From: a virus | Reading direction: 5' to 3' (one strand) | IMG/VR virus record: IMGVR_UViG_3300022562_002256 | Span: 96,001-160,000 of that record | Length of the DNA stretch: 64,000 nt | In this document: positions 12,526 to 61,375 of the stretch, piece by piece | How positions within the stretch are numbered: the stretch's first letter is position 1 | Layout of the letters: every line of letters starts with the position of its first letter | Program-made: the position numbers and the translations under genes | Notes under the pieces: generated by a model | The model's input: the letters and a program-made list of their open reading frames with translations, nothing else | The model's database searches: none | What the model was told of the DNA's origin: nothing

Positions 12526-12526
12526 C

Positions 12527-12955: not shown

Positions 12956-12992
12956 TTGACTCTCGCTCATGGTAGTGATATCACTACCATGA
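12956..12992 (+). promoter_or_regulatory. sigma-70 promoter overlapped by a perfect 26-bp palindromic operator
   Basis: TTGACT-N17-TATCAC with extended TG; TCATGGTAGTGATATCACTACCATGA (12967-12992) is self-complementary. Confidence 0.7.
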
Positions 12993-13650: not shown

Positions 13651-14141
13651 CTCAGTTCACGCCAAACGACGCGCAGTGGTGCATCGACTGCGGCGAGATG
13701 GAGGCGTCGAGCCCCGCTGGGCGTTGTCGTGATTGCGACCATTCCTACCTGTTCGCCGCGGGGTCGTGTCGCGAGTGCCTGCGTTGGATCATCCGCGAGG
13801 ACATCGGCGGCCCTGCAGCCGACCAACACGCGGTGCCATGCACCTTGCGCGCGAGCGGCGCCGACTGCTATCCGCGTGACGAGGCGGAGAACCTCCTCAT
13901 CCGGCAACGCAAGGGCTACCCGGGTGTGCCACCGCTGTCGCTCACCTACCCTGCACCCACCGCCACCCGGGCCGAAGTCGACGCGTGGTACAAAGCGCAC
14001 GCGCCACCACCGGAGCCCCCTCACGAGGCGCCGCCGGTCGCAAACGGGCCGTCGCCCGTGTGCTCGGCGTGCGGAGTGGTTAGGATCAAGGCACTCGGCC
14101 CTCCGTTCTGCGAGGGGTGCCGTCGGAGCATGGATATATGA
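13647..14141 (+). CDS. Cys-rich hypothetical protein
   Basis: Several CxxC pairs; coupled ORF. Confidence 0.55.
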   Translation: MTQFTPNDAQWCIDCGEMEASSPAGRCRDCDHSYLFAAGSCRECLRWIIREDIGGPAADQHAVPCTLRASGADCYPRDEAENLLIRQRKGYPGVPPLSLTYPAPTATRAEVDAWYKAHAPPPEPPHEAPPVANGPSPVCSACGVVRIKALGPPFCEGCRRSMDI

Positions 14142-15043
14142 ACGACACAGCAACGTCGACGACCACCCCCGAGCTCGAGTCAGCGCGCCGGGTGCTCGCC
14201 GCACTGAGGGCCTACGACGACGCGGGCCATGACCCAGGCTCGATGGAGGACCGTATGGCCCTGGCCGTCGTACTACGCGCACTCGACGGTCACGATGCGG
14301 GGTACATCTTTGGGTTCGACGCGGTGCTTAACGGCAGAACGCCCGTCGCCGAGGCACCACCATCCACCGGCCGCACATTGCCGCCGCCGACCGAGGCAGA
14401 AGCGCGCGCGATCGTGGCGGCGAGGTGTGACGATGGGGTTTCGAGGCCGGATGGGTGGCTGGAGTCGCTCACCGAGTCCCTCATGGCCGCGTGGCGCGAA
14501 CCCCAGAACCAGGCAGACATCCGCATCCTCCGGGCGGGTATCGCCATCGGAAGAGCCCGCGCGATGGCATCGCGCGGCAGGACCGAGTCGCCGGGCAAGT
14601 CCATGCCAGCGGTGCCCCATGAGCTCGATGAGCAACTTGCCGACATGCTAACGCCACAAGACCTCGGCGATGGTGGCGTGGTTCAGCTCGACCCGACCTA
14701 CGTGCGCGCTGTGGGGGTCGTGCTCAAGGCTATCGTAGGTCCAGATACGGGCATCCCAACCCCGGTGCTGTACGCCACGCCCGAGGCCACCATCCGGGCA
14801 GAGTGGTCGATTCGGCCGCGAGATGTTGTTGTGGATATCGGCCCGGCAGCCGGCATGAACATCACTGATGGGGTTGCCATCCACGCGTTTGCGGTCGACG
14901 TTGCCCCACCTGGATCAGTTGACGAGGCGACGTTCAGTTTGCCTCACGATCGTGGGGTTGAGCCGGTGGTCGAGTGGCTGCGTAGGTGGGTTATTCCACC
15001 TACGCCGAAGGGGTCGACGGGCGGCACACCGGAGGCACCATGA
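14138..15043 (+). CDS. hypothetical protein
   Basis: Coupled ORF, 301 aa. Confidence 0.6.
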   Translation: MNDTATSTTTPELESARRVLAALRAYDDAGHDPGSMEDRMALAVVLRALDGHDAGYIFGFDAVLNGRTPVAEAPPSTGRTLPPPTEAEARAIVAARCDDGVSRPDGWLESLTESLMAAWREPQNQADIRILRAGIAIGRARAMASRGRTESPGKSMPAVPHELDEQLADMLTPQDLGDGGVVQLDPTYVRAVGVVLKAIVGPDTGIPTPVLYATPEATIRAEWSIRPRDVVVDIGPAAGMNITDGVAIHAFAVDVAPPGSVDEATFSLPHDRGVEPVVEWLRRWVIPPTPKGSTGGTPEAP

Positions 15044-24558: not shown

Positions 24559-24938
24559 GCACGCAATTCGCGGTGGGTGAAGAGGCCATCCTTCTGGAGG
24601 GCGGCAAGCCCGTGGCGGTTGTCGCCATCATCAAGGTCACCCCGGGGGGACTTGTTGACGCCACGACGGGGTGGAATAGCCAAACCGAACGATGGAACGC
24701 CGATGGGTCTCCCCGCGGTAGCAGCTACCGTGGCTTCAGGTTACGCCGACTCGTGGTGCCTACCCCGTCACTCCGCGGGGAGGCCATCGCGAACACACAG
24801 CGCGCCGCGGTGCGGAAGGCGCTGGATGCGCTATCGAAGGCGACAATGGACGTTCTGCCGGCTGATGTGCTCCCCGATGTCATCCAGCACCTCGATGCCG
24901 CCATCGCCGCCATCGGGTCACGAGCGAGCAATGCGTGA
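24555..24938 (+). CDS. hypothetical beta-barrel-like protein, paralog of the previous ORF
   Basis: FAVGEEAILL...VAVVAIIKV...W..DG..RG...RRLVVPTPSL. Confidence 0.6.
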   Translation: MSTQFAVGEEAILLEGGKPVAVVAIIKVTPGGLVDATTGWNSQTERWNADGSPRGSSYRGFRLRRLVVPTPSLRGEAIANTQRAAVRKALDALSKATMDVLPADVLPDVIQHLDAAIAAIGSRASNA

Positions 24939-26271
24939 GATCATCGTTGACTGCTTCGCCGGCGGCGGTGGTGCCTCAACCGGAATCGAGCAGGCGCTCG
25001 GGCGGTCGCCGGACATCGCGATCAACCATGATCCAGAAGCCGTGGCGATGCATGCGGTCAACCATCCGGCGACGACGCACCTCTGCGGTGACGTCTGGGA
25101 CGTGAAGCCGCTTGACGCGACCCGGGGGCGACCGGTTGGGCTGCTTTGGGCCTCGCCAGACTGCAGACACTTCAGCAAGGCGAAGGGCGGTAAGCCGGTT
25201 GAAAAGCGCGTTCGGAGCCTCGCCTGGGTCGTTGTGAGGTGGGCGCGCGAGGTGCAACCGCGTGTGATCTGTCTCGAAAATGTCGAGGAGTTCGCCGACT
25301 GGGGCCCGCTCGTCGATGGGCGCCCGTGTCCTCTCCGAAAGGGCTTCACCTTTCGCCGCTGGGTCAAGGCTCTGGAGAAGGCCGGTTACCTTGTCGAGAC
25401 GCGCGATCTGCGCGCCTGCGACTTCGGGGCACCGACGATCCGCAAGCGCCTCTTCGTGGTCGCGCGCCGTGACGGGCTTCCCGCGGTCTGGCCAGCAGCG
25501 ACCCATGGCCGCGGGCTCCTCCCATACCGCACCGCGGCGGATTGCATCGACTGGAACATCCCTTGCCCGTCGATCTTCGATCGCAAGAAGCCGCTCGCCG
25601 CCAAGACGTTGCGCCGGATCGCGCGAGGGGTCCAGCGATACGTCGTCGACTCGCCCCACCCGTTCATCGTCCCGGGCACCGAGCCCACACCACTCGCTCT
25701 CCCACTCCAAGAATCGCTTTTCACGAACACCGATGACCCCGCATCTGGCGACCACGCCGGCGTAAGCGCCTTCCTGACCGACTACCTTGGCGGCGAAAGC
25801 GATGTCGCGCCATCAAGGCTTGGGTTGCATGCCATCCGCCCCGGCGCGGCGACCGACGTCGATCTCGTCGCATCCAGCCTGGTTCTATTCCACGGGTCGC
25901 GACGCGATGGTCAACCTATCGAGCGACCACTCCCCACTGTACGTGCTGGCGGCATGCATATTGCAGAGGTTCGCGCCTTCCTGGGCAGGCTTCGCTACGA
26001 GCACTCTCTTGCGGGGGGCGCCCCCGTCGTGATGATCGGCGCTGAGCCATACGGGATCGTTGATATCGGGATGCGTATGCTTTCGCCACGCGAGCTTTAC
26101 CGGGCTCAAGGCTTCGATGACGGCCATGTGATCGACGTCGATGCGAACGGCAAACGCCTCACCAAGGAGGCACAGGTGCGGCTGTGCGGCAACAGCGTGG
26201 TCCCCGCCGTCGCTCGCGCGATCGTTGTGGCAAACATGACCATGACGATGGCCGCCACCACGGCCGCGTGA
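24931..26271 (+). CDS. DNA cytosine-5 methyltransferase
   Basis: DCFAGGGGAS (I), WASPDCRHFS (IV), LENVEEF (VI), PTIRKRLF (VIII), QVRLCGNSV (X). Confidence 0.92.
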   Translation: MREIIVDCFAGGGGASTGIEQALGRSPDIAINHDPEAVAMHAVNHPATTHLCGDVWDVKPLDATRGRPVGLLWASPDCRHFSKAKGGKPVEKRVRSLAWVVVRWAREVQPRVICLENVEEFADWGPLVDGRPCPLRKGFTFRRWVKALEKAGYLVETRDLRACDFGAPTIRKRLFVVARRDGLPAVWPAATHGRGLLPYRTAADCIDWNIPCPSIFDRKKPLAAKTLRRIARGVQRYVVDSPHPFIVPGTEPTPLALPLQESLFTNTDDPASGDHAGVSAFLTDYLGGESDVAPSRLGLHAIRPGAATDVDLVASSLVLFHGSRRDGQPIERPLPTVRAGGMHIAEVRAFLGRLRYEHSLAGGAPVVMIGAEPYGIVDIGMRMLSPRELYRAQGFDDGHVIDVDANGKRLTKEAQVRLCGNSVVPAVARAIVVANMTMTMAATTAA

Positions 26272-28022: not shown

Positions 28023-28652
28023 TCATGTCGACGCCCGTTCGGTCCCCGGGGGCGCCTCATCGTCGACCATCTCCCATGCCCGGCTGTAGACCACCTTTGC
28101 GAACAGCGCCGCGACGCCGGTCAACTGCTTGTACCTGAACACGGCGTCCTCCTCGATGCCGAGCTTCGTAGCGATGTCCGCGTCAGAAAGCCCCTGCTCG
28201 ACCAACTTGCGGATCAGGTCCGCATCCAAGTCCACTTGATGCACCCCGCGCGCTTTATTGAACCTCCACGTGGCAGCAAGCCGCTGCGCCATCGTCAGCC
28301 GGAGCATCACCAGGGGCAGGTAGTCACAGTCGAGCCACCCAACACCGAGCACGAGCTTGCGGTGTGCCCCGTCCACCACCACGAACCGCTCCTGGTCATC
28401 ATCCCAGATCACCACGATCGGGAAGCAGAAGCCGCTCTCGACGATGTTTTCGACGAGGCACTCGAGCTTATCCCCGCTCACGTTGTTAGGATTATACAGA
28501 TTTTCCAGAACAAGTACGGGGCGCACCAGCCAGGTGTTGCAGCACGGCACCTCGATCCGGCCGCGAGTGCGCGAGGTGATGAATACCGGCTCGAGTGCTG
28601 CGCGCGCCGCGTGAAACTGCTCAATCGTGTCGATGCACACTACCGACATCAC
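28023..28652 (-). CDS. ibrB: ParB/Srx-domain protein, IbrB/YbdM-like
   Basis: NLYNPNNV...GFCFPIV...VVDGAHR...ATWRFNKARGVH plus C-terminal HTH. Confidence 0.85.
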   Translation of the reverse strand: MMSVVCIDTIEQFHAARAALEPVFITSRTRGRIEVPCCNTWLVRPVLVLENLYNPNNVSGDKLECLVENIVESGFCFPIVVIWDDDQERFVVVDGAHRKLVLGVGWLDCDYLPLVMLRLTMAQRLAATWRFNKARGVHQVDLDADLIRKLVEQGLSDADIATKLGIEEDAVFRYKQLTGVAALFAKVVYSRAWEMVDDEAPPGTERAST

Positions 28653-29791
28653 AGCACCTCATCGTAGTAGCGGATCAACTCATCGCGAGGGTCGGGGCGG
28701 TTGTCCACCACCAGGTTGTTCTCGTAGTCGTTCAGCGCCACCTGTCGGCACTGCTGTCGAGCCACGTACTCGTTCGTCAGATGGCGGCGGAACCGCTCGA
28801 CGAACAGGTGCCTTCGCTCTTCATCGGGGTGGGTGGCCAGCAAGAAGTCCCTGTACGCCACCCACGATCGGAAGTTTTTCGGCAGCTTGGCGACACGGAA
28901 CATCTTTGCGTCCCGCCCCGTCTCCGCTGCAAGCGCGATGCCCTTCACGCGCTTGAGGAGTCGGTTGTACGTCGCGGGCTCGAATTCCTGGAGGTCGGTG
29001 AGGCACTTGAACGACTTCTCGTGGATGAGCGACGAGACGCGCATCGCCTCGGGCGCGTACCCCTTCTTGTGCTGGAGGTCGTAGATCTTGGAGTACCTCA
29101 CACCGTGATCGTGGACGTACCGCCAGATGTCGTGGAACTGCCAATCGTAGATCGGGTAGAGTGTCCAGTTTTCCTCTTTTCTGGTGCCCCAGTAGACCGA
29201 GTGATCGCCGATGGTGACTGGGTTCTTCGCGACGGCGCGCCAGCGGTTGATCGACTCTCCGCTCGCCCGGATGCCCACCAGGAACGCGGTCCGCGAGTAG
29301 CACCGCGAGAACGTGTCGATCACGTCGTAGAAGCCGAACCCCTTGTTCTTGTCGCGGATGGTCTCCTTCTCCGGCGGCCAGAATTTCGCCTTGATCGCGT
29401 CGTCGCGTTTGTGGCGCATCCAGGTCTTGTGCTTGCCGGGATCCCACGCGCCGAGCTGCCCTTCCTCGCGACTCGTCGCATTGGTGAGGTTGAACGGGAT
29501 CTGGAGCCACTGTTTGATGGTCACCCCGGGGAACAGCTCCATGAGGTAGGCCACTTGCTCGACGCTGCTCTGGTACATGACCTCCTCGTCGAGGACATGG
29601 ACGCCGATGCGCACTCCCCGCCGCGCCGCCTCCGTCAGGGCGAGGTGCGCGAGCACCGTGCTGTCCTTGCCACCAGACACCGACACGATGATCCCGTTGA
29701 GCGAGCCGTCCGCCACCCGGTCGAACACCCACCCGATGCGACGCTGTGCGGCTTCGAGGACCGACTCACCCGTGAAGTGCTGCCTGGGCAT
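28649..29791 (-). CDS. ibrA: PAPS-reductase-family protein, IbrA/YbdN (DUF3440)-like
   Basis: VSVSGGKDS PP-loop, DEE, LVGIRASGESINR, YPIYDW, MRVSSLIH. Confidence 0.85.
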   Translation of the reverse strand: MPRQHFTGESVLEAAQRRIGWVFDRVADGSLNGIIVSVSGGKDSTVLAHLALTEAARRGVRIGVHVLDEEVMYQSSVEQVAYLMELFPGVTIKQWLQIPFNLTNATSREEGQLGAWDPGKHKTWMRHKRDDAIKAKFWPPEKETIRDKNKGFGFYDVIDTFSRCYSRTAFLVGIRASGESINRWRAVAKNPVTIGDHSVYWGTRKEENWTLYPIYDWQFHDIWRYVHDHGVRYSKIYDLQHKKGYAPEAMRVSSLIHEKSFKCLTDLQEFEPATYNRLLKRVKGIALAAETGRDAKMFRVAKLPKNFRSWVAYRDFLLATHPDEERRHLFVERFRRHLTNEYVARQQCRQVALNDYENNLVVDNRPDPRDELIRYYDEVL

Positions 29792-30695
29792 CCGCCAGTC
29801 TCCTCGCCCACCCCTCGAACCGTTCCTGATACCACCGCTCAGCCTTCGTGTCGGCCACCAACACATCGACCGTGCTCTGCCGTGTGATGGCGAGGAAATC
29901 CGTCATGTCCAGGAAGTTGTGTGGCAACTCGAGCACCGTCCGGTGCACCTCGTCGCGCACGTCGCGGTAGGTAGCCAAGTTGGGTAGTCGGAAGCGGTTG
30001 TTGCGCCCGATGTACGAACGGGCGGGGTCCACGTGCGCGAGCTTCGCCTTCCCAGTGACAAGAAGCAGGTTCCGCGGGATCTGATGGGGGTCCTTCTCCG
30101 GGTCGCCGCGCACCATGTCGAACAGCGCAGCCCGCTCCTTGGCATAGGCGGCATGCACGGCCGCGTCCGTGGTGATGTGGTGGAACCGAAAACTCACCGG
30201 CGTCGGCGTGTGGTGGAGCGAGGCTTCCCGCAGCAACTCGCGGGTGAGCGTGCGTTCGTGCTTCCACCTGCTCTCGGTAACGAAATCGAACAGCACCCCG
30301 AAGTCCTCGACGGTGTCGATCATGGGGAGGTACTGGAAGACGAGGCAGTGGGGCGTCTGGAGTAGGTAACGTCGGATGCAGTTATAGGACAGATCGTAGC
30401 GGTCCTGCACCCGCATGCACTCATTCAGCACGACCAGCACCGACGGGTCGATGCGTTGCTGGAGGTCGTAATACACCCGGTACCAGAAGACCTTGGCGTG
30501 CTCGACGTCGTGACACGGAAGCACGTCGACAGGAAAGCGGCGATGCGGTGGCGAGATGAGGACCACCTGTTTGATGCCGGCGTGCCCGGCCACGTAGCGT
30601 CGCACCACGTCGGCCTTTGCCGCCCCGTCGAGCCCTAGATAGATCGCGCGGTCCAACGCCACCTCACGGAGTTCTCGGCGATCCATCCGATGCAC
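29766..30695 (-). CDS. hypothetical protein resembling a degenerate SNF2 N-terminal lobe
   Basis: VVLNECMR...YNCIRRYL...LVFQYLPMIDTVEDF..LFDF echoes motifs II/III; no Walker A seen. Confidence 0.5.
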   Translation of the reverse strand: MHRMDRRELREVALDRAIYLGLDGAAKADVVRRYVAGHAGIKQVVLISPPHRRFPVDVLPCHDVEHAKVFWYRVYYDLQQRIDPSVLVVLNECMRVQDRYDLSYNCIRRYLLQTPHCLVFQYLPMIDTVEDFGVLFDFVTESRWKHERTLTRELLREASLHHTPTPVSFRFHHITTDAAVHAAYAKERAALFDMVRGDPEKDPHQIPRNLLLVTGKAKLAHVDPARSYIGRNNRFRLPNLATYRDVRDEVHRTVLELPHNFLDMTDFLAITRQSTVDVLVADTKAERWYQERFEGWARRLADAQAALHG

Positions 30696-31261
30696 GTGGC
30701 GTTGATATCACTCATGGTGAAGCGGCCCCCACGCTCTACAAACGCCCGACCCGTGTTGCCATATCCACAGCACGGGTCACCCACGTGCAAGTATCGTGCC
30801 GCGAGATCATCGAGCACGTCGGTGGTGACATCGCCATCCGGTGCGAGCGTCGTGCGATAGACGAGCGCGACGCACCGCCCATTTCGATGGAGGTCATCGG
30901 GGAACCTCAGCGCGAGGCTCTGCTCCGGCGCTGGCATGTAGCGCACCAGGGATGGCGCCGTGACGATGCACGCCGGCACGGCCATGCGACTGACCATCCC
31001 CGACAATGCCTCCAGGTATTCGGCGAACGACGTCGTCCCCTCGCTCCCCGCGCGGTCCTGAAAGATCCTGTAGCCGGGGCGCCACGCCATCTCGGTGTAG
31101 AGCACGTCACAGTCACCATACTCGGCCGGAAGTACCCCTCCGTGCGCGGCCATGTCGTACACGAACGCGACCGACCCGTCGCGTTCGAACCGCTCGGCAG
31201 GCTGCGCGTCGTTCGGCGGATGAAGGGCCGAGTGGTAGGTTACACGTGCTTTCGTAGCCAT
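30635..31261 (-). CDS. methyltransferase-fold protein with altered catalytic motif
   Basis: DVLYTEMAW at the DPPW position; VGDPCCGYG SAM motif; MSDIN. Confidence 0.6.
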   Translation of the reverse strand: MATKARVTYHSALHPPNDAQPAERFERDGSVAFVYDMAAHGGVLPAEYGDCDVLYTEMAWRPGYRIFQDRAGSEGTTSFAEYLEALSGMVSRMAVPACIVTAPSLVRYMPAPEQSLALRFPDDLHRNGRCVALVYRTTLAPDGDVTTDVLDDLAARYLHVGDPCCGYGNTGRAFVERGGRFTMSDINATCIGWIAENSVRWRWTARSI

Positions 31262-31854
31262 TCGGCAGTCCTATCGAGGCGTGTGGCGTTGAGTTCTGTG
31301 CCCCGGAACGTCGCCCCGATGGCGTGAGTGACGCGCGCTGTCATACCAAGGCCGGTGCACGGGTCGAGCACCACGGTCCCCGGCTGCACGCAGGCGTTGA
31401 GCGCTGCCCTGGTCACCCCCTCACCGTGTGGCGGCACCGGCATGACGACATTGACGTCGGTCGCCCCGTAGAGCGACAGCGTGTTCGGCAATGGCTTTTT
31501 CTTGGGGCCATAGAGGATTGTCCATCGACGGCGCGGTGGGCGTCCAACGCTGGTCATCGCCGCGTCTAACTCGTCAACCCACCTGATGCCCATCTCCACG
31601 AACACCGGCGCGGCGGGGCGCGAGAACGTCGACACGGCAGCACAAAATGCCGCCAAAAAGCCGGGCCACGACGTGCGCGGCTCCGCTCCTCGAGCCATCA
31701 CGGTGTGCCAATAGCGCTGATTCCCCGGGCCCCACGGCGGGTCGCTGTACACCACGTCGGCGAGTTCATCACCCATGAGGGTCGCGACGACCCCCGATGT
31801 CAGGTCGCCGCACAACACCCGGTGCTTGCCGATCTCAAGAATTTGCCCTAACAC
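31240..31854 (-). CDS. small beta-class amino-methyltransferase
   Basis: HRVLCGDL, VYSDPPW, VLDPCTGLG, GTELN. Confidence 0.75.
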   Translation of the reverse strand: MLGQILEIGKHRVLCGDLTSGVVATLMGDELADVVYSDPPWGPGNQRYWHTVMARGAEPRTSWPGFLAAFCAAVSTFSRPAAPVFVEMGIRWVDELDAAMTSVGRPPRRRWTILYGPKKKPLPNTLSLYGATDVNVVMPVPPHGEGVTRAALNACVQPGTVVLDPCTGLGMTARVTHAIGATFRGTELNATRLDRTAEWLRKHV

Positions 31855-32180
31855 CTTTTCTCGGTCCCTTTAACCACCGTGATGAGCGCCGGGTGGCGGC
31901 CGTGCTCGTCCGCCACCACATAGAACCGGAGCCTGTGCGGACGAGCACCACGCCACAGATCGGCGAGCTTCCCATCGATTAGGTAGGGAAGGGCACGCAC
32001 ACGATGAGCTCGCTCGCTTTCAACGATGAGGCACTCGAGCGCATCGGCAAACGATGCGCCAGGTACCACCCGTTTGCGGTACCGGCGCACCGCATGAGGC
32101 GTGATAAACCACCGGCCACGTGCTCCCACGACGCCACCATAAGGCTCCACCACCGTGTCGCAAGGCGGCGGTATCGTCAC
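31848..32180 (-). CDS. hypothetical protein (ITPHAVRRY motif)
   Basis: ATGA coupling; recurrent phage motif. Confidence 0.55.
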   Translation of the reverse strand: MTIPPPCDTVVEPYGGVVGARGRWFITPHAVRRYRKRVVPGASFADALECLIVESERAHRVRALPYLIDGKLADLWRGARPHRLRFYVVADEHGRHPALITVVKGTEKRC

Positions 32181-32485
32181 GTGCCGTACCGGCGAGTCAG
32201 GGCAGCCTTGCCAGCATCAATGAGCGCGGCGGGGTCCTGGCCGATCTCGCGACAGAACCCTGGCCGCTGCACGGCTTGCCACGCCCGCTCGATGGCGGCG
32301 GTATCGTCACCATGGCCACCAAGGCTCGCAGCGAGACGCAGGGCGCGCCGCCAGTCGCCGACGGCCACCAAGCGCCTGAGCGTGTCGCGAGGCCGCTCAG
32401 GCTCGCCTTCCGCCCTACCGCTGGGCATCGTCGGCGGCCGTGGTCGCCTGGCACCGACCTTGGGCATTCGGATCATGGCGGTCAT
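32177..32485 (-). CDS. conserved small phage protein
   Basis: GDWRRALRLAA...IERAWQA...P.FCREIGQDP..LI..G..AL..RY. Confidence 0.6.
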   Translation of the reverse strand: MTAMIRMPKVGARRPRPPTMPSGRAEGEPERPRDTLRRLVAVGDWRRALRLAASLGGHGDDTAAIERAWQAVQRPGFCREIGQDPAALIDAGKAALTRRYGT

Positions 32486-32895
32486 GGACGGGGCCCGCGC
32501 GCCGCCAGATCCTTGAGCGCCTTGCCGACCGGGGTGGCGGCGTAGTCGCCACCGGCGTACACCTCGTCGGCGGAATCGAGACTTGGGAAGCACTTCATCG
32601 TGGGGTCGTCGTCACGCCGCTCCGCCACGGCGCCAAAGAACTCATCAACCCGCCCCACAGGCACATCGACCACTGTCATCGTCAGCGATGGTAGGTCAGC
32701 CACCTCGTACAGCCCGGTGTCGGCAGCGAGCACAGCCGAGTGGCCCAAGTGAGTTGCCCACTCCACGCAATCGGTTGCGGCGGCGTCCATGAGCACATGG
32801 ATCTTCCCCCGCACGATCTGCTGCCACTGCCCCCCGCACGCCTGGATGGCACTCGTCTCTTGCATGGGTCGTTGCGGATGCACGATGCGTGCCAT
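32482..32895 (-). CDS. hypothetical protein
   Basis: Coupled ORF. Confidence 0.45.
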   Translation of the reverse strand: MARIVHPQRPMQETSAIQACGGQWQQIVRGKIHVLMDAAATDCVEWATHLGHSAVLAADTGLYEVADLPSLTMTVVDVPVGRVDEFFGAVAERRDDDPTMKCFPSLDSADEVYAGGDYAATPVGKALKDLAARGPRP

Positions 32896-35408: not shown

Positions 35409-36353
35409 TCACGGGGCTCCGCACAGCGCCTCCAGGGCATTCAGCCACGGCACAGGCACGGCGGCTGGCGGCCACCGGAGCGTGTTGCGGATGACCAACT
35501 CCCCCGTATCAACCCGCGACGCCGCTCGCGCTGCCACTCGCCGGGGGGCGGTCACCGCGGTCAGGTCGAAGCCGCCATACAACTCCCGCGTCCGCGGCGT
35601 GTCGCTGTTGCTCACGATCAGCAAGCACCCCCGTAGGTCGAGCTCGCGATAGACGGCGGCAAGGCGCGCATGCTCGGCCTCTGACCAGGCACCGCCAGCG
35701 TAACTCGTGAAGTCGCTCGTCGCGCTCAGCGGCACGTAGGGGGGGTCCAGGTACACCACGTCCCCCGGCTGTGCACCGCGTTCCGGCTCAAGGAGGTGCT
35801 CGTAGCTGGCCGCGAAGATGTGGGCGCCTTGCAGCGCCCGGCTCGCGGCGTAGATGTTGCGGCGGTCGTACACGGCGCGCCGCGGGTTCTTCCCCCACGG
35901 CGTGTTGTAAAGCCCGGCGCGGTTGAACCGACAAAGCCCGTTGAAGCCCATCTTGTTCAGGTACAGGAAGACCGCGGTGAGTTCACAGTCGTACATCCGC
36001 GCCTCGCCGCTCAGGTGCGCGTTGAACCGGGCCCGTTCCTCGAGGTATCGAGCCTCGCCGTTGGGCGCCTCGCCATTGCGACCGTGAGCCCGCACCAGGG
36101 CGTCCACGTTGGCCATCACGTTCGCGGCGTTGTCGCGAATCTCGCGGTGGAGCGCCACAAGCGACTCGTTCACGTCGGACAGCACCGCGCGAGGTGGCTG
36201 GAGGTAGAAGAACATCGCGCCGCCACCCACAAACGGCTCCCGGTACACGCGCTCGTTGATGTCGCGCGGCATGAGTTGCGCGAGCCGCGGTGCCAGCGCC
36301 CACTTGCCCCCAACCCATTTCAGGTACGGCCGCGCTTCTTTGGTCACTGACAT
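35409..36353 (-). CDS. dam: Dam-like DNA adenine methyltransferase (alpha class)
   Basis: PYLKWVGGK, YREPFVGGGA, LSDVN, FNGLCRFN, YLDPPY, SNSDT. Confidence 0.92.
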   Translation of the reverse strand: MSVTKEARPYLKWVGGKWALAPRLAQLMPRDINERVYREPFVGGGAMFFYLQPPRAVLSDVNESLVALHREIRDNAANVMANVDALVRAHGRNGEAPNGEARYLEERARFNAHLSGEARMYDCELTAVFLYLNKMGFNGLCRFNRAGLYNTPWGKNPRRAVYDRRNIYAASRALQGAHIFAASYEHLLEPERGAQPGDVVYLDPPYVPLSATSDFTSYAGGAWSEAEHARLAAVYRELDLRGCLLIVSNSDTPRTRELYGGFDLTAVTAPRRVAARAASRVDTGELVIRNTLRWPPAAVPVPWLNALEALCGAP

Positions 36354-36490
36354 CGCCGCACCACCCGCTCGATGAGAGTTATCTTGCATCGCAAACACCC
36401 ATCCGGTGGCAGCGCAAGCCCGAGAGCCCGTGCCAACCGCAGCACGTTCGCCCACCGGGCGCGCCACAACTTCGGGCGATCGATGGTCAT
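36344..36490 (-). CDS. small hypothetical protein
   Basis: Overlaps the dam start; 48 aa. Confidence 0.35.
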   Translation of the reverse strand: MTIDRPKLWRARWANVLRLARALGLALPPDGCLRCKITLIERVVRRCQ

Positions 36491-37703: not shown

Positions 37704-38245
37704 CGCGCCCCCCTCACCGCAAACCCTAGCCGAATCCGCTCCTCGGTGGTCATCGCCCACCGCACCAAGTTGTCGAGCGAGTCCGCGAAATCTGAGTCGC
37801 CATGCGCGCGACAGCCCCACCCGGTGTAGTCGCACCTGGCCCGCACCATGACGTAGCGGCCGTCCTTGAGCAACAGAGCGGCGATCCAAGAAGCATCTTC
37901 CTTCCGGTCTTCGGCGGCACATTCGGCGACATACCATTCATCACCATACCCTTCGTCGGCCGCAATCACCCGCTCGATGTCTGCCACGTCGAAGGGCACA
38001 ACCGAACCAGCGTACCCCTCCGACGGCCGAGTCTGGAACACCGTCGCCCGGGTGGCCCAGTCGTATCGCCACAGCGCCTCCGACAGCGCCGATGCCCAAT
38101 CTCCCGACTCGAAGTCAGCCGGTGATACCTCAGGGATCGGCGCTCCCCAACACGTGTGGCATGGGACCGCCTCGGTGTTCATCCCGCACCCGCCGACGTC
38201 CTCGTCGCTGTACCCGCGCCCCTTGCATTCCCCGCACGCCTTCAC
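37700..38245 (-). CDS. conserved phage protein with N-terminal CxxC-CxxC
   Basis: FDVADIERVIAADEG...LKDGRY...CDYTGWGC. Confidence 0.65.
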   Translation of the reverse strand: MKACGECKGRGYSDEDVGGCGMNTEAVPCHTCWGAPIPEVSPADFESGDWASALSEALWRYDWATRATVFQTRPSEGYAGSVVPFDVADIERVIAADEGYGDEWYVAECAAEDRKEDASWIAALLLKDGRYVMVRARCDYTGWGCRAHGDSDFADSLDNLVRWAMTTEERIRLGFAVRGAR

Positions 38246-38847
38246 GACACCACCCCGTAGCGCAGGATGCGCGCAATGCCGTCGGCGATGTATGTGTCGC
38301 ACGTAGGACACCAGTGCTCTTGGCCCGAACACGGCTCGAGGTAGTCGCCGTCGCACCCATCGAGGCAAGCACCCGGGTCGTGAAGCAAAATCGCCGCCAC
38401 GGCGAGCTCGCGCCGCCTGCGCATGAGCAAGCGCCCGAGCATGTTTTCGCCCGGCGCGGCGCAGTCGGTCCGGGCTCCGCACCGGCAGTCACCCCAAAAG
38501 TTGTCATGCCAGTCGTTGCCCTCGACGAGGATCTGATCTCCTGTGGCGATCAGGCGCTGCGCGAGCGGCGAGCCTTGCTCGAACTTCGAGCGCAGGCAGT
38601 CGCGCATCACACCGACCTTGACCGCTTCCCAGTCGTGGCGGAGCGGGAGCTTTCGCCCCTCGCGCTTGGCTTGTCCAGCGTTGAGGCTGCCGTAGCCGAC
38701 CATGAATGGCTGCCTGAGCCTTGCCACAAGCGTCTTGGCCGCCTGAAAGGCGTGCTCCACGCTGGGGTACTCTGCCCCCTCGAAAAACACACCGGTCTTG
38801 ACGAAGTTCGACAAGAAGGCGTTGTCGCCCCGAAACGACTCGATCAT
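38242..38847 (-). CDS. NADAR (YbiA/DUF1768) family protein with C-terminal Cys module
   Basis: FLSNF...YPSVEHAFQAAK...LVEGNDWHDNFWG...GENMLGRLLM. Confidence 0.88.
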   Translation of the reverse strand: MIESFRGDNAFLSNFVKTGVFFEGAEYPSVEHAFQAAKTLVARLRQPFMVGYGSLNAGQAKREGRKLPLRHDWEAVKVGVMRDCLRSKFEQGSPLAQRLIATGDQILVEGNDWHDNFWGDCRCGARTDCAAPGENMLGRLLMRRRRELAVAAILLHDPGACLDGCDGDYLEPCSGQEHWCPTCDTYIADGIARILRYGVVS

Positions 38848-38854
38848 GTTCCAC

Positions 38855-39115
38855 CTACGCGCAATCATCCCCATGGCCCGAGCCCGGTTCCGTCGAGTCC
38901 TCCGGCGACCCGCCGTTTGCCCCCGCATACGCCTTATTCAAGGCGTATGCTCGCTCATACTCGGGGTGCCCGGGACCGTATCCCGCTGGCTGATCGACGT
39001 GGGGCTTTTCACAGCGGCACCAGACAAAGTGACCGGCGATCCCACACGGGTCGCCAGCAGGATACGGGTTCGGGGGGCCGACGACACGAGCCATGGGCAC
39101 AACAAATTTGGTCAC
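38855..39115 (-). CDS. small hypothetical protein
   Basis: GAGGTG RBS downstream of a sigma-54 promoter. Confidence 0.5.
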   Translation of the reverse strand: MTKFVVPMARVVGPPNPYPAGDPCGIAGHFVWCRCEKPHVDQPAGYGPGHPEYERAYALNKAYAGANGGSPEDSTEPGSGHGDDCA

Positions 39116-39172: not shown

Positions 39173-39188
39173 CGGCACGGCCGTTGCA
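39173..39188 (+). promoter_or_regulatory. sigma-54 promoter
   Basis: CGGCACGGCCGTTGCA; 13 nt to ATG 39201. Confidence 0.8.
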
Positions 39189-39200
39189 CGCTCCCGGGGC

Positions 39201-40019
39201 ATGACCACCGACACTCTCGCCGTCCGCGCCACCGCCCGAGAGCTCGTCGCCGTGTTTCAGGAGGCTGCCGCCACCGTGCGCACGTGTTTCGGCGCGCTGC
39301 ATGCGGCTGAGGCGCGCCTCGCCGCCGCCTTCTCGATGGCGGATGGGTACGCGCGCATCCGGATCCCAGCGACCCGGTGCCACCACTCGGCCGAGTTCGA
39401 CCGGGCTGAAGAGTCCATCGCCGAGATGGCCCGGGACGCGTGGCGCGCCATCGTCGACCGACTCGACCTGCGCCGCCTGCTGTCCGTGGCACGCTATGAG
39501 CAACTCCAGACCGAGTTGGAGAAGGGGGCGCTCCCCGAGCTGACCGAGGACGCTGTGGTCGCCTTCGTACGGCGCTACGTCGACCAGATCGAGGAGATGC
39601 ACGACGAGGCTGTGGCCGAGGTGTTCGAGTTCCTGCGCCCCCGAAGTCTCGGGATGAAGCGCCTCAAGACCAACTCCGAGCTCGAGGTGCCAGCCAAGGT
39701 CATCCTGCGGTTGGTGGCGCGAGGTCCCATGGGGTACTGGCGGCTGCGTTATTGGAAGGTGGCACAAAACCTCATCGCCCTGGAAAACGTCCTCCACGCG
39801 CTTGATGGTCGTGGCATGGTGGCATCCAGCAGTCGGAGCGCCCTACAAACCGCGATCGAGGAGACCACAACGGGGACCGGGGAGACCGACCTGTTCTCGT
39901 TTCGGTGCTGCGAGAACGGGAACCTTCACTTGCGCTTCAAGCGACTCGACCTGCTCGCCCGGCTCAATGCAAAGGCGGGCGGCAAGCGGCTTCGGCCGCC
40001 GACAGCGCCCTGTGCGTAA
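39201..40019 (+). CDS. DUF4942 domain protein (stand-alone)
   Basis: VFEFLRP...KTNS...KVIL...ETDLFSFRCCENGNLHLRFKRLDLLARLN. Confidence 0.75.
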   Translation: MTTDTLAVRATARELVAVFQEAAATVRTCFGALHAAEARLAAAFSMADGYARIRIPATRCHHSAEFDRAEESIAEMARDAWRAIVDRLDLRRLLSVARYEQLQTELEKGALPELTEDAVVAFVRRYVDQIEEMHDEAVAEVFEFLRPRSLGMKRLKTNSELEVPAKVILRLVARGPMGYWRLRYWKVAQNLIALENVLHALDGRGMVASSSRSALQTAIEETTTGTGETDLFSFRCCENGNLHLRFKRLDLLARLNAKAGGKRLRPPTAPCA

Positions 40020-40066
40020 ATCGTGCGCCTTCCGCCGCAGAATTTGCCGCGGCGGCCGTTGGCAAG

Positions 40067-40828
40067 TCATGCCTCTGCACCGATCCGCACGACCGGCACC
40101 ACGCACCGGGTCCGGGTCGCCTGGTGCCAATAGGGGGCGCGTGTCCCGTCCACACGCTCACACCACGACCCCGGTGCGAGCATGGCCGGGTCTGATATAC
40201 CTCCGTCGCGCACCAAAGGGAGCGACCGCTGCGGCGCCCCCTTCCACACCAGCGATCGGTCGGCGTCGAGCCGCGTGAACTCGTACCCAAGCACCGTCCC
40301 CAGCCCACGGTTGTGGTCCCGGCCGAGCCCGCCGATGAAGTCGAGCAGCGTGGCGACCTTGCCACGGTCGCCGAGCAGCGCGAAGTCCAGGTAGGGCGTG
40401 GTCAGCGTGGCCACGGGAATATTCAGGCTTTTCCCCCAGCCCCCCGAGATGCCCAACCGCTCGATCGCGTAGTGTTCCGCTCGCGCGCGCTTGCGGCGCC
40501 ACCGTTTCGACTCGACGGCGCACCGTGCTGGCCAGCCCCACGACGCGTGCGCGATCGGCCAGCCCCCGATCACCGAGTCCGCCACGGGGATCGGGATGTC
40601 GATCTTCGGCGTGCCGGCCGGAATCTCGGCGAACACGTCGTCGGGCAGCCGGCCGGTGGCGTCAAGCACCACGGCGAATTGGATGGCGCCGTCGATGGTG
40701 ATTGCGTCCCGTCCATCCCACGCAACCGGCGACGCCAGCCACACGCGCACCCGGAACGGCTCGACTCGGCTACAGCCCCACCGCGCGCGAGATCGGGTCA
40801 CCCACGGGGGTTCGACCCAGCCGATCAC
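40067..40828 (-). CDS. csf3: type IV CRISPR-associated Csf3 (Cas5 family)
   Basis: FRVRVWLASP...ITIDGAI...GGWGKSLNIP...LGDRGKVATLL..IGGLGRDHNRGLGTV...RSLP...PYW; GTGA-coupled to csf2. Confidence 0.8.
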   Translation of the reverse strand: MIGWVEPPWVTRSRARWGCSRVEPFRVRVWLASPVAWDGRDAITIDGAIQFAVVLDATGRLPDDVFAEIPAGTPKIDIPIPVADSVIGGWPIAHASWGWPARCAVESKRWRRKRARAEHYAIERLGISGGWGKSLNIPVATLTTPYLDFALLGDRGKVATLLDFIGGLGRDHNRGLGTVLGYEFTRLDADRSLVWKGAPQRSLPLVRDGGISDPAMLAPGSWCERVDGTRAPYWHQATRTRCVVPVVRIGAEA

Positions 40829-42384
40829 GACGCGGCACCCCCGTCGCCCTCGCGCCCGCTGCGGCGTCGTCGACCGGCCTTTACGGGCCCCTTGGCGGCG
40901 GGTGGGGCTACCCCCGCGTCGCGCCCGGTCGGCGCGGTTTTGGCGGCACTCTGGCGCCGGCCTGGCCGGTCCTCGAGCAACCACGCGCGCAGCTCATCCC
41001 GGTGTTCCGCCACCCACGCCTGGTACACGGTCGGTGGCGGCAGCGGTGGTGCACTCCCGCCCGGGACATAAGCGACGAACCCCACCGCACCGAGCCCCCG
41101 GGCGTTCGCGGCGCCGACAAACCCGTCCTGCTGGAATTCTACGAGCAGATCGGCCATGCACGCCCCGGCCACCTCGCTCACGCCGTCCAGGCCGATGAGC
41201 TGAAATCTGTGCACCAACTGCACACCGGGGATGAGCACCTCCGTGTTGACCAGCATCTGCACGCCCTTGCAGTCCTCGATGTCCCGGTGGGCGTGGTGCG
41301 TCAGAAGTCTGAGTTGCGTGAGTGTGTCGGCCGGCTTCAGCGACGCCGTGAATTCGGGCAGCGTCATCGCGGCGCCATCGCGCGTCTTGGGCTGCAAGAG
41401 CGCATGCACCATCCACGCGTTCTCGCGGCACAGCAGGATCACGTCATGCACCCGGAGCAGCCCTCGCATGATCTGCCCATCAACAACCCCCGCGAACAAG
41501 TCCCACGCGGGGCATACCGCGCGAGCACGCCGCCGAACCGCCACGTCCACCGCATCGCCGTCCGCCCCCGCCTCAATGGTTCCGCCCGACAGCAGCGCGT
41601 GGGCCCGGGGCGCCGGCAAGTCCTGTGCGGTCAACCCGACAAGCTGCAGCATGCGCCCCATGATGATGTCACGCCAGCATCCGCGGACCGCGTTGCCCGA
41701 CACCAGCGGCACGATCGCGATCTCGCCTGTAACGGGTGACACCACGCGCTGTCGCCGAAACATGGTCACGTTGCCGCTCTTCTCGTCGTGACCATGAGCC
41801 ATGGGGGCGACCAGCGTCCACACGGCGGTGTATGCCCGGGGTGTGAGCAGGTCACCTGGCACCTCTGCGGTCCACGTCTCGGCACTGGCGGAGGCATCGG
41901 CCCACGGGGTGAACAACGCCTCCTCTCCGTCGACCGGCGGCGCCGTTGCGAAGGTGGCGAACAGCGCGGGGCTCTCCGTCACCGCAAGCCGGAGCGCATC
42001 GAAATCAATCGCTTTGCACACCGCTGTCCAGGAGACGGCTGCCGTGGTCTCGTCCGCCTCGGGATGCTCAATCTCCAGCACGCCCGCCGGCACGAGCAAC
42101 CGCGGGATGAGCACGTACACCGGCCGGGCCGTGATCTCCTTGCCTTCGTCGTTCTCAAAAGTCCCGCCCGTCTCATTTATGCTGAACCGCTGGCACAGCA
42201 TCCGGGTGAACTCAAGCGTCGACCGCGCGCTGGTCACCATGGGCACAAGGGCGTCGCGTAGTTCCTCGCTGATGTTGCGGCGGCGCCGCCGAGGAATGCC
42301 CTCCCAATCGACGCGGCGCCACAGTGCCCGGAGCAGGTAGGCCATGAGTGCGGTCGCGGCATGAATCGCAGGCGGTGTCGTCAT
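40825..42384 (-). CDS. csf2: type IV Csf2 (Cas7 family) with an N-terminal helical, probably Cas11-like, domain
   Basis: TLVAPMAHG, VPLVSGNAVRG..RD, LLSGG, PAWDLFAG, EVLIPG, VGAANARGLG; true ATG at 42384 with GAGGA RBS. Confidence 0.85.
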   Translation of the reverse strand: MTTPPAIHAATALMAYLLRALWRRVDWEGIPRRRRRNISEELRDALVPMVTSARSTLEFTRMLCQRFSINETGGTFENDEGKEITARPVYVLIPRLLVPAGVLEIEHPEADETTAAVSWTAVCKAIDFDALRLAVTESPALFATFATAPPVDGEEALFTPWADASASAETWTAEVPGDLLTPRAYTAVWTLVAPMAHGHDEKSGNVTMFRRQRVVSPVTGEIAIVPLVSGNAVRGCWRDIIMGRMLQLVGLTAQDLPAPRAHALLSGGTIEAGADGDAVDVAVRRRARAVCPAWDLFAGVVDGQIMRGLLRVHDVILLCRENAWMVHALLQPKTRDGAAMTLPEFTASLKPADTLTQLRLLTHHAHRDIEDCKGVQMLVNTEVLIPGVQLVHRFQLIGLDGVSEVAGACMADLLVEFQQDGFVGAANARGLGAVGFVAYVPGGSAPPLPPPTVYQAWVAEHRDELRAWLLEDRPGRRQSAAKTAPTGRDAGVAPPAAKGPVKAGRRRRSGREGDGGAAS

Positions 42385-42440
42385 TCGGTCGTGTCCTCTT
42401 CGTTCTGTCCGTGTTTCGTGGCGAGGTCGACCCGCCGCTT

Positions 42441-42455
42441 CTATTGTAACACATC
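42441..42455 (-). promoter_or_regulatory. extended -10 sigma-70-type promoter for csf2-csf3
   Basis: TGtTACAAT about 60 nt upstream of the csf2 ATG. Confidence 0.5.
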
Positions 42456-42491
42456 CCGCGACGGGTGTGAGGCGGCTGCACACCGGCGCGA

Positions 42492-42507
42492 TGGCACGAT
42501 GCATGCA
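42492..42507 (+). promoter_or_regulatory. sigma-54 promoter (leadered, G11 tract in leader)
   Basis: TGGCACGATGCATGCA, then G11 and GGAGG before ATG 42545. Confidence 0.7.
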
Positions 42508-42544
42508 TGTGGATGCGCCCGGGGGGGGGGGAGGACCAACCGCG

Positions 42545-42775
42545 ATGAGACGACGTGTCATTGTCGACCCGTACACGCCCGGTAGACACGTCAATGCGAT
42601 GACCATCGACGATGACACGGGCAAGCGAATTTTCGTCTTCCCCCGCCCCGGCAGCGTGGTCGTAGGTGTCTGTGAGCGCAAGAAGGCAGCGAGCGTTCTC
42701 CTACGAGTCGAGGAGGTTGACGACCTCCTCGCCGCCCTGCGTGACGCGAGCGCCGTGGCAGGAGGCAAACCGTGA
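42545..42775 (+). CDS. small hypothetical protein
   Basis: GGAGG RBS; 76 aa. Confidence 0.55.
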   Translation: MRRRVIVDPYTPGRHVNAMTIDDDTGKRIFVFPRPGSVVVGVCERKKAASVLLRVEEVDDLLAALRDASAVAGGKP

Positions 42776-42919
42776 CGCGCGCGAGGGTCGCCGTCCCTGA
42801 CGCGCTGGGACGCCAACGATGGTAAGCGTCTTCTAGACGGGCAGTCCGTCGCGTGGACAGCAAAACCATGGGTCTGGGCGCTGACATACTCGGTGGTCCG
42901 ATGACGTCGGATGCGGGGC

Positions 42920-43879
42920 ATGGCTGACCGCTCCCGGTTCGAGTCGACGTGCCCGTGCCCCGCGTGCGGCGGGTGCGCATGCCGGTGGCTGCTGCGTATG
43001 CCCGCTACCGTGTGCCAGTCTGTGCCACGATGTGCCTGCTCACGAGGGTTGGCTGCCGACGAGCCTGTCCTGTGGCCCACCGACGTCGCTGCGTGGGCCC
43101 GGTGGATGGCCGCGGCCCGCATCCATGCCCGCTCGGTGGCTCACCGCCGCGTTGTCGAGCAGGCACGGCGGGCGGTGGACCAGGCGCTTGTCGGCGCGTC
43201 GACGGCATGCGTGATGGTGAGCGCAGGAAAGGACTCGACCATCCTCGCGCACGTGGTGACGGCGTTGATGGGGCGGCACGACGTGACGTTGGTGTCCGAA
43301 AAAGATGACCTCGACTACCCGGGGGAGGAGGAGTACCTGCGGCTCCTCGCCGCGGAGTGGGGGGCAACGCTCCGCGTCGTACGGCCGCGCGTATCTCCAG
43401 CCGAATGGATTCGATCGCGAGGAGCCACACGCGCTCACCGGGCCGCGGATGACATCCACTCACGCGCGGCTGGGCTGAGCAAGGCGTGCTTTTATCGCGT
43501 GGTCGAGGCGGTCAACGCCGAGTACGATGTCGTGATGCTCGGTCTCCGTGCGCAGGAGAGCACGGTTCGACGAATCGTAAGGCACAGGCGGGGGCTGGTC
43601 TACACGCTCGCGTCGGGGCAGCGCCGGGCCAACCCGCTGTTCGATTGGCGAGGGCTTGACCTCTACGCCTACGCCGAGAGCCACAGCATCCCCCTGCTGC
43701 CGCTCTATCGGTGCATCGCGTTCATGCACGAGCGCCGGCCGTGGGACGTGCGTAAGGCGTGGTGGCTCCCCGGGGGCCATTCTACACGCAACGGCGGAGT
43801 CGCGTGGCTCAAGCACTACTTCCCCACACTGTATGATCAACTTTGCGAATGGATCCCAGGCGCGCCCGCCTATCGGTGA
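42920..43879 (+). CDS. CysH-like PAPS-reductase-family protein of the type IV-B-associated kind
   Basis: VMVSAGKDS, EKDDLDYPG, VMLGLRAQES..R, NPLFDW, YRC; Cys-rich N-terminus; adjacent to csf2/csf3. Confidence 0.8.
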   Translation: MADRSRFESTCPCPACGGCACRWLLRMPATVCQSVPRCACSRGLAADEPVLWPTDVAAWARWMAAARIHARSVAHRRVVEQARRAVDQALVGASTACVMVSAGKDSTILAHVVTALMGRHDVTLVSEKDDLDYPGEEEYLRLLAAEWGATLRVVRPRVSPAEWIRSRGATRAHRAADDIHSRAAGLSKACFYRVVEAVNAEYDVVMLGLRAQESTVRRIVRHRRGLVYTLASGQRRANPLFDWRGLDLYAYAESHSIPLLPLYRCIAFMHERRPWDVRKAWWLPGGHSTRNGGVAWLKHYFPTLYDQLCEWIPGAPAYR

Positions 43880-43967: not shown

Positions 43968-43992
43968 TTGCGCCGAACCGGCAGAATTTACC
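43968..43992 (+). repeat. family B core palindrome, copy 4
   Basis: CTTGCGCCGAACCGGCAGAATTTACC, about 120 bp upstream of the promoter at 44114. Confidence 0.7.
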
Positions 43993-44113: not shown

Positions 44114-44129
44114 TGGCACGGGCAATGCA
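44114..44129 (+). promoter_or_regulatory. sigma-54 promoter (followed by only a 17-codon ORF)
   Basis: TGGCACGGGCAATGCA; 14 nt to ATG 44143. Confidence 0.75.
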
Positions 44130-44168
44130 AGAGTGCTTAGGCATGACCACGGCGAATCCATCTTCGCC

Positions 44169-44804
44169 TCACTCGATTGTATCGGCAGAAACTTGACTGT
44201 ATTGGTAGACCACATCGGCAAGATCAAACCGCCACCTTGCCACCATCTTGCGCCCGGGCGCCCCGTGGGTGGGCCACCTTGCTTCTGGCATCCCGGAGTC
44301 GCCTATCACCACCTCGGGCATCACCCACCGCATCCCCGCTGCGAGCACGGCGTCCTCGAGCGCCACCATGTCGTTCGCCCACGCCCGCAACACATCGTTC
44401 GGAAGGCGGTCCCACCGCGTGTCGTACCACACAAACCCGCCTCTTGTCGTACAGTGGACACCCTTCAATCGGAGGGCGTATCGCTCCGCTCGCTCTGACA
44501 TCGGCGTTCTCACGCTTCTGTACCCCAGGGCATCCTGCCCGGCATCGCGCCATGTCGGGCCAGTGGCATCGGCGTCGCCAAGGGCAAGCCACTCATCGGG
44601 TCTCCCAGACCGAACGCCGTGCCACACGCCGTGACCATCCTTATCGACCACGAGCGGGCGCCATTCCTCATTCAACGTCATGTGGGCGTTGCACCTTATC
44701 CGCTCGACGCGAAGCCACTCACACTCGGGCCGGTAGAGGCGCACGTCGGAACGCCCACACACGCTGCACGCGTACCTGTGGTAGTATCGGTTACCGCTGG
44801 TCAT
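44169..44804 (-). CDS. hypothetical protein with N-terminal CxxC
   Basis: YACSVCG...RLYRP...RC; ATGA coupling. Confidence 0.55.
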   Translation of the reverse strand: MTSGNRYYHRYACSVCGRSDVRLYRPECEWLRVERIRCNAHMTLNEEWRPLVVDKDGHGVWHGVRSGRPDEWLALGDADATGPTWRDAGQDALGYRSVRTPMSERAERYALRLKGVHCTTRGGFVWYDTRWDRLPNDVLRAWANDMVALEDAVLAAGMRWVMPEVVIGDSGMPEARWPTHGAPGRKMVARWRFDLADVVYQYSQVSADTIE

Positions 44805-60786: not shown

Positions 60787-61116
60787 CTATAAAAGGCGCA
60801 CTTCGTGCGCCACAAGGCGACGCGCCTCGTCGCCTTCGCGCGTACGCGCCGCGACCAAGGCGGCGATGCGACCGCGGGCCGCGCCGAGCGTCGTGGCGTC
60901 AACCTGGGCTCGAGCCCAGAGTGCGTCGCTTTCGGCGTCCCAGGCAGCCTGGGCGCCGAGGTCGTCGGCGGGTGCGCCAGGGAACAGGGGCCGCGGTCGG
61001 GCGGCGAGCCACTCAAAATGGGTGGTCCGAGCATACGCTCGGACTAGGTGCGCGGTCTTTGCGTCGAGGCGATGCGCTCGGCGGCGGCGGCGGAGTCGGC
61101 GTGCTCTGGGGTTCAT
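60787..61116 (-). CDS. hypothetical protein, near-leaderless
   Basis: ATG 13 nt after a sigma-54 GC. Confidence 0.6.
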   Translation of the reverse strand: MNPRARRLRRRRRAHRLDAKTAHLVRAYARTTHFEWLAARPRPLFPGAPADDLGAQAAWDAESDALWARAQVDATTLGAARGRIAALVAARTREGDEARRLVAHEVRLL

Positions 61117-61121
61117 GTCCT

Positions 61122-61375
61122 GCTGTCTTGCACTGTCCGTGCCATCGTGGCGCGGCAACCGCACGGCGCGCTGGTCGTGTGCGGCCTTACGGTGGCGGAT
61201 CGGCGTCGATCCACGCCGTGTCAATGATTTTGGGCACTTAGCCGCGCCGGCGGGGCGTGGCATGTTGCCACACCGTGGCAGACCGCCACACGTCGCAGAA
61301 CCAGCACTCAAGTGGCTGCCAGCACGCGGTCCTGGAACAAATCCGTGGCAGAACGCCACAACCAATACTGAACAC
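61122..61375 (-). repeat. upstream cassette family A, copy 2
   Basis: Direct repeat of 10236-10489. Confidence 0.9.
61129..61144 (-). promoter_or_regulatory. sigma-54 promoter
   Basis: TGGCACGGACAGTGCA; 13 nt to ATG. Confidence 0.8.

Follow-up and report, generated by a model that had tools for sequence, protein, structure and literature searches.

A type IV-B-derived CRISPR-Cas module with a fused Cas11-Cas7 protein and no recognisable csf1 in a large phage

Can a type IV-B CRISPR-Cas module still work after its large subunit has been lost? The question is raised by a small locus at positions 40067-43879 of a 64,000-nucleotide stretch of viral DNA (the window), which is bases 96001-160000 of a single 198,045-bp contig, IMG/VR record IMGVR_UViG_3300022562_002256. 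Type IV-B loci usually have the gene order csf1-cas11-csf2-csf3 and, to our knowledge, have had no known function for a decade. Their function and complete architecture were still described as unclear in 2026 (PMC13676074). The locus codes for a Cas11-Cas7 (Csf2) fusion, a Csf3-type Cas5, and a CysH-like protein, and we find no csf1 anywhere in the genome. The contig's ends overlap, and its record lists it as viral and 100% complete, with direct terminal repeats. Profile matches identify portal, head maturation protease, and tail sheath genes, and it is therefore the genome of a large contractile-tailed phage; the profile of the one terminase family tried gave no match.

An earlier sequence-only reading of this locus proposed a type IV-B-like module with csf2, csf3, and cysH genes, and all three are confirmed. 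The fusion gene (40825-42384, minus strand; 519 amino acids [aa]) is supported by its open reading frame (ORF) and by profile and structure matches, with a Cas11 domain at residues 1 to ~157, a linker, Cas7 at residues ~183 to 470, and a basic disordered tail. The Cas7 part (40975-41838, minus strand) matches the PADLOC type IV Cas7 profile over residues 186 to 471 (E value 2e-42) and the Csf2 of Mycobacterium sp. JS623 (PDB 7JHY; E value 2e-14). The structure model of the fusion is confident (predicted local distance difference test [pLDDT] 90, predicted template modeling score 0.84), and its Cas7 aligns with type IV-A1 Cas7 (8rc3_A, Z 20.8) and type IV-B Csf2 (7jhy_e, Z 19.8), as expected of a Csf2-type backbone. 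The csf3 gene (40067-40828, minus strand; 253 aa) is coupled to it, its GTG start overlapping the TGA stop of the fusion gene. Its product matches the PADLOC type IV Cas5 profile (E value 2e-24), and the family profile matches solved Csf3 (E value 2e-21), placing it as a Csf3-type Cas5.

The ~180-aa N-terminal extension on Csf2 that had been read as a helical domain is real; it is helical and when folded alone reaches a pLDDT of 92.8. Compared with 48,161 chains, it resembles 7jhy_h most (Z 8.6, root mean square deviation 3.3 Å, 110 residues aligned), the runner-up scoring Z 3.8 and other class 1 small subunits lying among the low-scoring matches. Apart from Csf2 and Cas11, the 7JHY map resolved nothing but non-specific RNA (PMC7937560), and 7jhy_h is not a Csf2 chain, so that it must be Cas11. 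A helical domain with Z under about 13 is not conclusively assigned by that score alone. The match to the PADLOC type IV Cas11 profile is weak (E value 0.003), Foldseek with the domain returned nothing at an E value of 0.001 or better, and a profile-profile comparison with the N-terminal domains of a second fusion clade (described below) is also weak (probability 3.9%); only the wide structural search resolved the identity. The predicted fold match, the position in the gene order, and the profile nonetheless concur in identifying the domain (41914-42384, minus strand) as Cas11, and the small subunit of type IV-B is thus present in fused form. Five Cas11 subunits sit on six Csf2 subunits in 7JHY (PMC7937560), and a one-to-one fusion is therefore structurally sensible.

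The large subunit is a different matter. The window had been reported to lack recognisable csf1, cas6, cas1, cas2, and an array, and this holds across the complete genome, with the reservation that no cas2-specific profile was run. Two clade profiles of Csf1 and the PADLOC profile PDLC01721, searched in six frames with stops read through, gave a best E value of 0.69, whereas all four related phage records used as positive controls matched, one of them from outside the query alignment. A scan for CxxCG..CxxC motifs that might betray a hidden Csf1 gave nine ORFs, none of which the Csf1 profiles match. The Cas8-like Csf1 expected of type IV-B is accordingly missing. The whole-genome search for Cas6 gave a best E value of 0.8, and neither cas1, a Cas12f/TnpB domain, nor a Helicase_C_2 match indicative of DinG was found in the whole genome. 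A whole-genome scan found no array, although a control array was detected in the related genome G003. The absence of an array, Cas1, Cas6, and DinG is itself typical of type IV-B. The sequence-only reading had allowed that a csf1 and an array might lie elsewhere in the genome, or that the N-terminal domain might be unrelated to Cas11; neither gene nor array was found, and the domain does resemble Cas11.

Csf1 could be supplied in trans, by a prophage, a plasmid, or a co-infecting phage, or by an unrecognised replacement protein in the genome. The Cas5 retains an Arg-rich thumb and the near-invariant Lys133, features of the kind that pair with Cas8 in type IV-A, where Cas8 and the Cas5 thumb form the interface with the protospacer adjacent motif (PAM) (PMC11519345). 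Relatives of the fusion are found in Myxococcota, Sorangium, "Deltaproteobacteria," and Pseudomonadota bins, which is a mere hint at the host, and type IV-A3 has gained a substitute Cas8 (10.1101/780106). Against this, three different profiles give no homology to Csf1 in six frames of the genome. A 76-aa ORF (42545-42775, plus strand; called in both assemblies) lies between the fusion gene and cysH and occupies the place of csf1 in relatives, but it is not Csf1-like, with no zinc-finger motif and no likeness to Cas8. Together with its 102-aa open frame it has no Pfam, PHROG, or PADLOC match and only weak Atlas look-alikes. We regard completion in trans as improbable.

Is the fusion, then, part of the same reduction? 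The sequence-only reading described a further-reduced variant with a fused small subunit, of which the loss of csf1 and cas6 stands and the fusion as reduction does not. A search with the fusion gathered 76 proteins including the query, nearly all full-length and with 30 to 59% identity, and the N-domain profile matches mostly proteins of 450 to 580 aa. Counted after removal of near-duplicates, csf1 is upstream of the fusion in all 45 distinct clade loci with upstream DNA, directly so in nearly all; cas5 follows the fusion in 42 of 42, and cysH is present in all 17 loci with at least 7 kb downstream. These comparisons place the fusion as the ancestral state of a widespread phage clade and not as part of this phage's reduction. 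IbrA-like and ParB-like genes are present in 12 and 11 of the 17 loci, respectively, often accompanied by methyltransferase-, GNAT-, or glycosyltransferase-like genes. A second clade of ~410-aa Cas11-Cas7 proteins, with the order cas11-cas7, csf1, cysH, cas5 and an N-domain matching type IV Cas11 in 28 of 35 cases, forms a separate branch of a quick tree; it accounts for most of loci L014, L016-L029, L031-L033, and L086-L120.

A Cas6-like gene, unusual for array-less type IV-B, is found in 18 of 25 clade loci with enough flanking DNA (PADLOC E values down to 1e-8). Examples are L001/L122 (12258-14132), L124 (12291-13733), L123 (12306-14897), and L049 (5997-7076), among others; these genes often have Cys-rich N-terminal repeats and once an HNH domain, and no array was found for them.

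What is special to this phage is only the absence of csf1 and cas6 and a broken operon. Its Cas7 is nested among csf1-bearing loci in the quick tree (Shimodaira-Hasegawa-like approximate likelihood ratio test 99), which makes the absence of csf1 a derived loss. The cysH gene is inverted and lies upstream of the fusion, beyond the 76-aa ORF, and the accessory cassette that many relatives hold between cas5 and cysH is displaced 7.5 kb downstream. Such scrambling, together with csf1 in all 45 relatives, would suit an orphaned remnant in which a recent rearrangement deleted csf1 and left a module that is dead and not yet decayed. Two degenerate copies of a phage-wide repeat core (GCAGAATTT) bracket the module in the same orientation, as after recombination, one just past the csf3 stop (40037-40048, plus strand) and one just past the cysH stop (43981-43992, plus strand; 130 nt before a sigma54-type motif), and may record how the module was moved. 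The DNA between the 76-aa ORF and cysH (42772-42900, plus strand) consists of short, interrupted, overlapping frames and resembles the debris of a frameshifted gene.

Against a remnant, the three ORFs are all intact. Family-conserved columns are kept at 97.8% in the fusion, 96.4% in Cas5, and 94.7% in CysH, at or above the family median, and in the quick tree the terminal branch of the Cas7 is of unremarkable length (0.29; median 0.22). A related strain in another sediment study differs at 35 of 997 bases in the fusion gene (~3.5% diverged), with four of the five differences listed being synonymous, and the sequencing run that holds it has depth in every bin across the locus. A Logan contig carries the same csf1-less layout, possibly from the same sample as the phage, and no close relative with that layout was retrieved among viral contigs. 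The conservation and strain data favour continued selection, without proof that selection acted after csf1 was lost.

Both units, for which a split between a sigma-70 and a sigma-54 promoter had been proposed, are also faced by promoter-like sites, a further point against a remnant. The sigma70-type site upstream of the fusion (42443-42471, minus strand) is weak, one being found where 0.5 are expected by chance. The putative sigma54-type promoter motif (TGGCAC-N6-TGC; 42492-42506, plus strand), which faces the 76-aa ORF and cysH, is one of 83 matches genome-wide, compared with 0 to 6 in three related phages. On balance we consider a remnant unlikely, if a serious contender.

The CysH-like protein (42911-43879, plus strand) matches Pfam PAPS_reduct (E value 3e-9) and has SxGKDS, GxRxxES, and PLxxW motifs. 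In the family alignment the PP-loop motifs are conserved and no Cys is invariant. A GxxxW(L)xxxYP motif lies at the C terminus, the end of which has no conserved Cys; the C-terminal catalytic Cys motif of canonical CysH, the reductase of 3'-phosphoadenosine-5'-phosphosulfate or adenosine 5'-phosphosulfate in sulfate assimilation, is thus missing, as befits the cysH-like ancillary genes of type IV-B. The Cys-rich N terminus described for this protein did not survive comparison: residues 1 to 46 are missing from every aligned homolog, which begin near an M-x-E-P motif at residue ~50, and have no coding GC (guanine-plus-cytosine) pattern (codon position 2 GC 0.76, against 0.52 in the core). These residues are probably upstream DNA read through, with the true start near 43049, where the conserved part begins.

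Does this enzyme belong to the Cas proteins physically? In a three-chain model of fusion residues 1 to 472, Cas5, and CysH, the docking score is 0.69, none of three controls exceeds 0.00, and the score dropped to 0 once the fusion was replaced. Of 80 solved complexes 58 attained the mark, as did 2 of 110 mismatched pairs, although these counts are only roughly valid for a three-chain job. At least 75% of contacts agree between runs, and partner pLDDT is at least 87. The predicted docking site of CysH comprises the Cas5 thumb and the fused Cas11. Contacts are tightest between Cas5 residues 133 to 140, the strand after the Arg-rich thumb, and CysH residues 293 to 305, which are the GxxxWLxxxYP motif conserved in both fusion clades (G295 and P305 are 91% conserved), and Cas11 residues 138 to 157 also lie within the predicted interface. 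No Cas-associated CysH is among the PDB structures matching CysH, making recall of a solved complex unlikely. The suggestion that the module is a scaffold for CysH chemistry gains support from this predicted complex.

The RNA on which such a complex might form had been suggested, as speculation, to come from the repeated cassettes of the phage, and this is unlikely. A ~130-nt repeat family has eight close copies genome-wide (75 to 92% identity, core CCGGCAGAATTTACCGG), at window positions 21802, 23671, and 61444 and at five sites outside the window. The repeats fold no better than shuffles, and the core motif is in no other clade locus, giving single scattered matches in viral contigs; we therefore read them as promoter-upstream elements. 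The aligned copies lie 130 to 230 nt upstream of sigma54-type motifs; all three window copies are upstream of sigma54-type promoters, and the repeats are possibly enhancer or activator sites. A second dispersed family (200 to 260 nt, 87 to 93% identity) is present at 10226-10489 and 61112-61375 and in two copies outside the window. At 44114-44196 (plus strand) a sigma54-type motif is followed only by a 17-codon ORF converging on the next gene, which could give a small RNA or peptide. An Rfam scan of 26 to 46 kb gave no match.

Arrays are no better as a source of guides for the clade. Only two were seen, each directly behind a Cas12m-like (V-U1) gene, and there are none in genomes G000, G002, or G004. 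Both lie a few kilobases from a type IV-B locus: in L189 (G003) the Cas12m-like gene is at 8569-10527 and the array at ~10620-11300, and in L049 they are at 12178-14019 and ~14030-14570. Both repeats end in CTGGGAC. Phage Cas12m has been reported as new (bioRxiv 10.64898/2026.09.14.751636).

These two relatives show that conflict between CRISPR systems belongs to the lives of such phages, and this bears on another explanation, which builds on the crRNA sponge or anti-CRISPR named in the sequence-only reading. In it a Cas11-Cas7/Cas5 filament soaks up host CRISPR RNAs (crRNAs) without Cas8, and CysH either is carried along or inactivates the RNA that is bound. Non-specific RNA suffices for type IV-B filaments to assemble, and a sponge role has been suggested before. 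The JS623 complex, however, took up few co-expressed type I-E crRNAs (PMC7937560), and a sponge leaves unexplained the retention of CysH, its constant linkage (17 of 17), its predicted docking, and the presence of csf1 in all relatives. We give an anti-CRISPR sponge only a small chance.

The reading that we prefer, tentatively and at somewhat less than an even chance, is a still-functional Cas8-less type IV-B variant: an RNA filament that does not depend on a PAM and to which an adenylating CysH-like enzyme is attached. The fusion would polymerise along RNA with Cas11 locked one-to-one to Cas7, Cas5 would cap one end of the filament, and CysH would bind at that end, held by the Cas5 thumb and the closest Cas11 domain. 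A complex that lacks Cas8 would not be expected to open double-stranded DNA at a PAM; its target would be single-stranded nucleic acid, or it would serve as a scaffold. The bound RNA would come from heterogeneous transcripts of the phage or host, or from host crRNAs that are scavenged, and not from an array. The PP-loop enzyme, without its reductase cysteine motif, may adenylate a nucleic-acid or nucleotide substrate during infection, an idea taken from PMC8175902, and the IbrAB/methyltransferase cassette possibly cooperates in this chemistry. The stronger proposition, that a minimal type IV-B machine of only three proteins (the Cas11-Cas7 filament, its Cas5 cap, and docked CysH) works without a large subunit, array, or Cas6, we regard as rather doubtful. 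If true, the core job of type IV-B would be RNA-scaffolded adenylation by CysH and not PAM-dependent DNA targeting.

Several observations weigh against a functional Cas8-less variant. The loss of csf1 is confined to one phage lineage while 45 relatives keep the gene, which suggests that Csf1 is normally needed, and the operon has been taken apart: cysH is inverted in a new place, and the cassette lies 7.5 kb off. No contig listed for the diverged strain bridges the fusion to cysH, so that this strain may yet carry csf1, and its five listed substitutions are few. Conservation in the predicted interface does not exceed that elsewhere in the proteins (p 0.84, 0.39, and 0.99), and since the modelled chains exclude Cas8, CysH may sit on a surface that is normally shared with it. 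Neither an RNA partner nor a substrate of the module was identified. The locus is informative in any case: as a natural Cas8 deletion in an otherwise intact module, it puts to the test any need for DNA targeting. With the Cas11:Cas7 ratio set by the fusion, reconstitution comes down to three genes, the model offers a specific mutable docking site (Cas5 133-140 against CysH 293-305, plus Cas11 138-157), and sister loci with csf1 and a Cas6-like gene are ready-made comparisons.

The displaced cassette (28023-32593, minus strand), which the sequence-only reading overlooked, is a probable nucleic-acid modification cassette. All on the minus strand, it has two small unassigned genes (32177-32593 and 31848-32180), two methyltransferase-like genes (31240-31854 and 30635-31261), an unassigned 309-aa gene (29766-30695), an IbrA-like PAPS-reductase/DUF3440 gene (28649-29800), and a ParB-like gene (28023-28637). 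The phage is rich in methyltransferases more generally, with a Dam-type enzyme at 35409-36467 and a further DNA methyltransferase at 24559-26271, and NADAR (38242-38928) and DUF4942 (39183-40019) genes are also encoded in the window.

How does the module compare with systems already described? Among type IV effector modules, subtype IV-A2 (10.1101/780106, PMC11519345) is a precedent for the loss of csf1, but it has DinG and an array and neither Cas11 nor CysH, whereas this phage has Cas11 and CysH and no DinG domain or array. The Cas7-11 effectors of types III-E and III-I (PMC12669027) likewise fuse Cas11 to Cas7 domains; those are multi-Cas7 single-chain type III proteins, whereas the phage protein descends from type IV and is one Cas11-Cas7 unit, which has to polymerise. 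As far as the main texts of the type IV-B literature could be searched, a type IV Cas11-Csf2 fusion has not been described. The type IV-B loci of the Bathyarchaeia "Fuxiviridae" (PMC10848311) are similarly virus-encoded with cysH beside csf3, but keep Csf1 and have a mini-array, neither of which is found in the phage module. The closest comparison is with the Csf complex of Mycobacterium sp. JS623 (PDB 7JHY; PMC7937560), which shares the Csf2-type Cas7, the type IV-B Cas11 fold, Csf3, a cysH-like neighbour, the lack of an array, adaptation genes, Cas6, and helicase, and a mobile-element location; an RNA-bound filament in the phage would follow by analogy with 7JHY. The phage module differs in having Cas11 and Cas7 on one polypeptide, no csf1 genome-wide, and a divergent cysH, and in being carried by a phage and not a megaplasmid, with relatives that often have a Cas6-like gene and an IbrAB/methyltransferase cassette. 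With a type IV-B-like core of Cas7, Cas11, and Cas5 but no Csf1, it is best placed as a derived variant of type IV-B and not as a canonical member.

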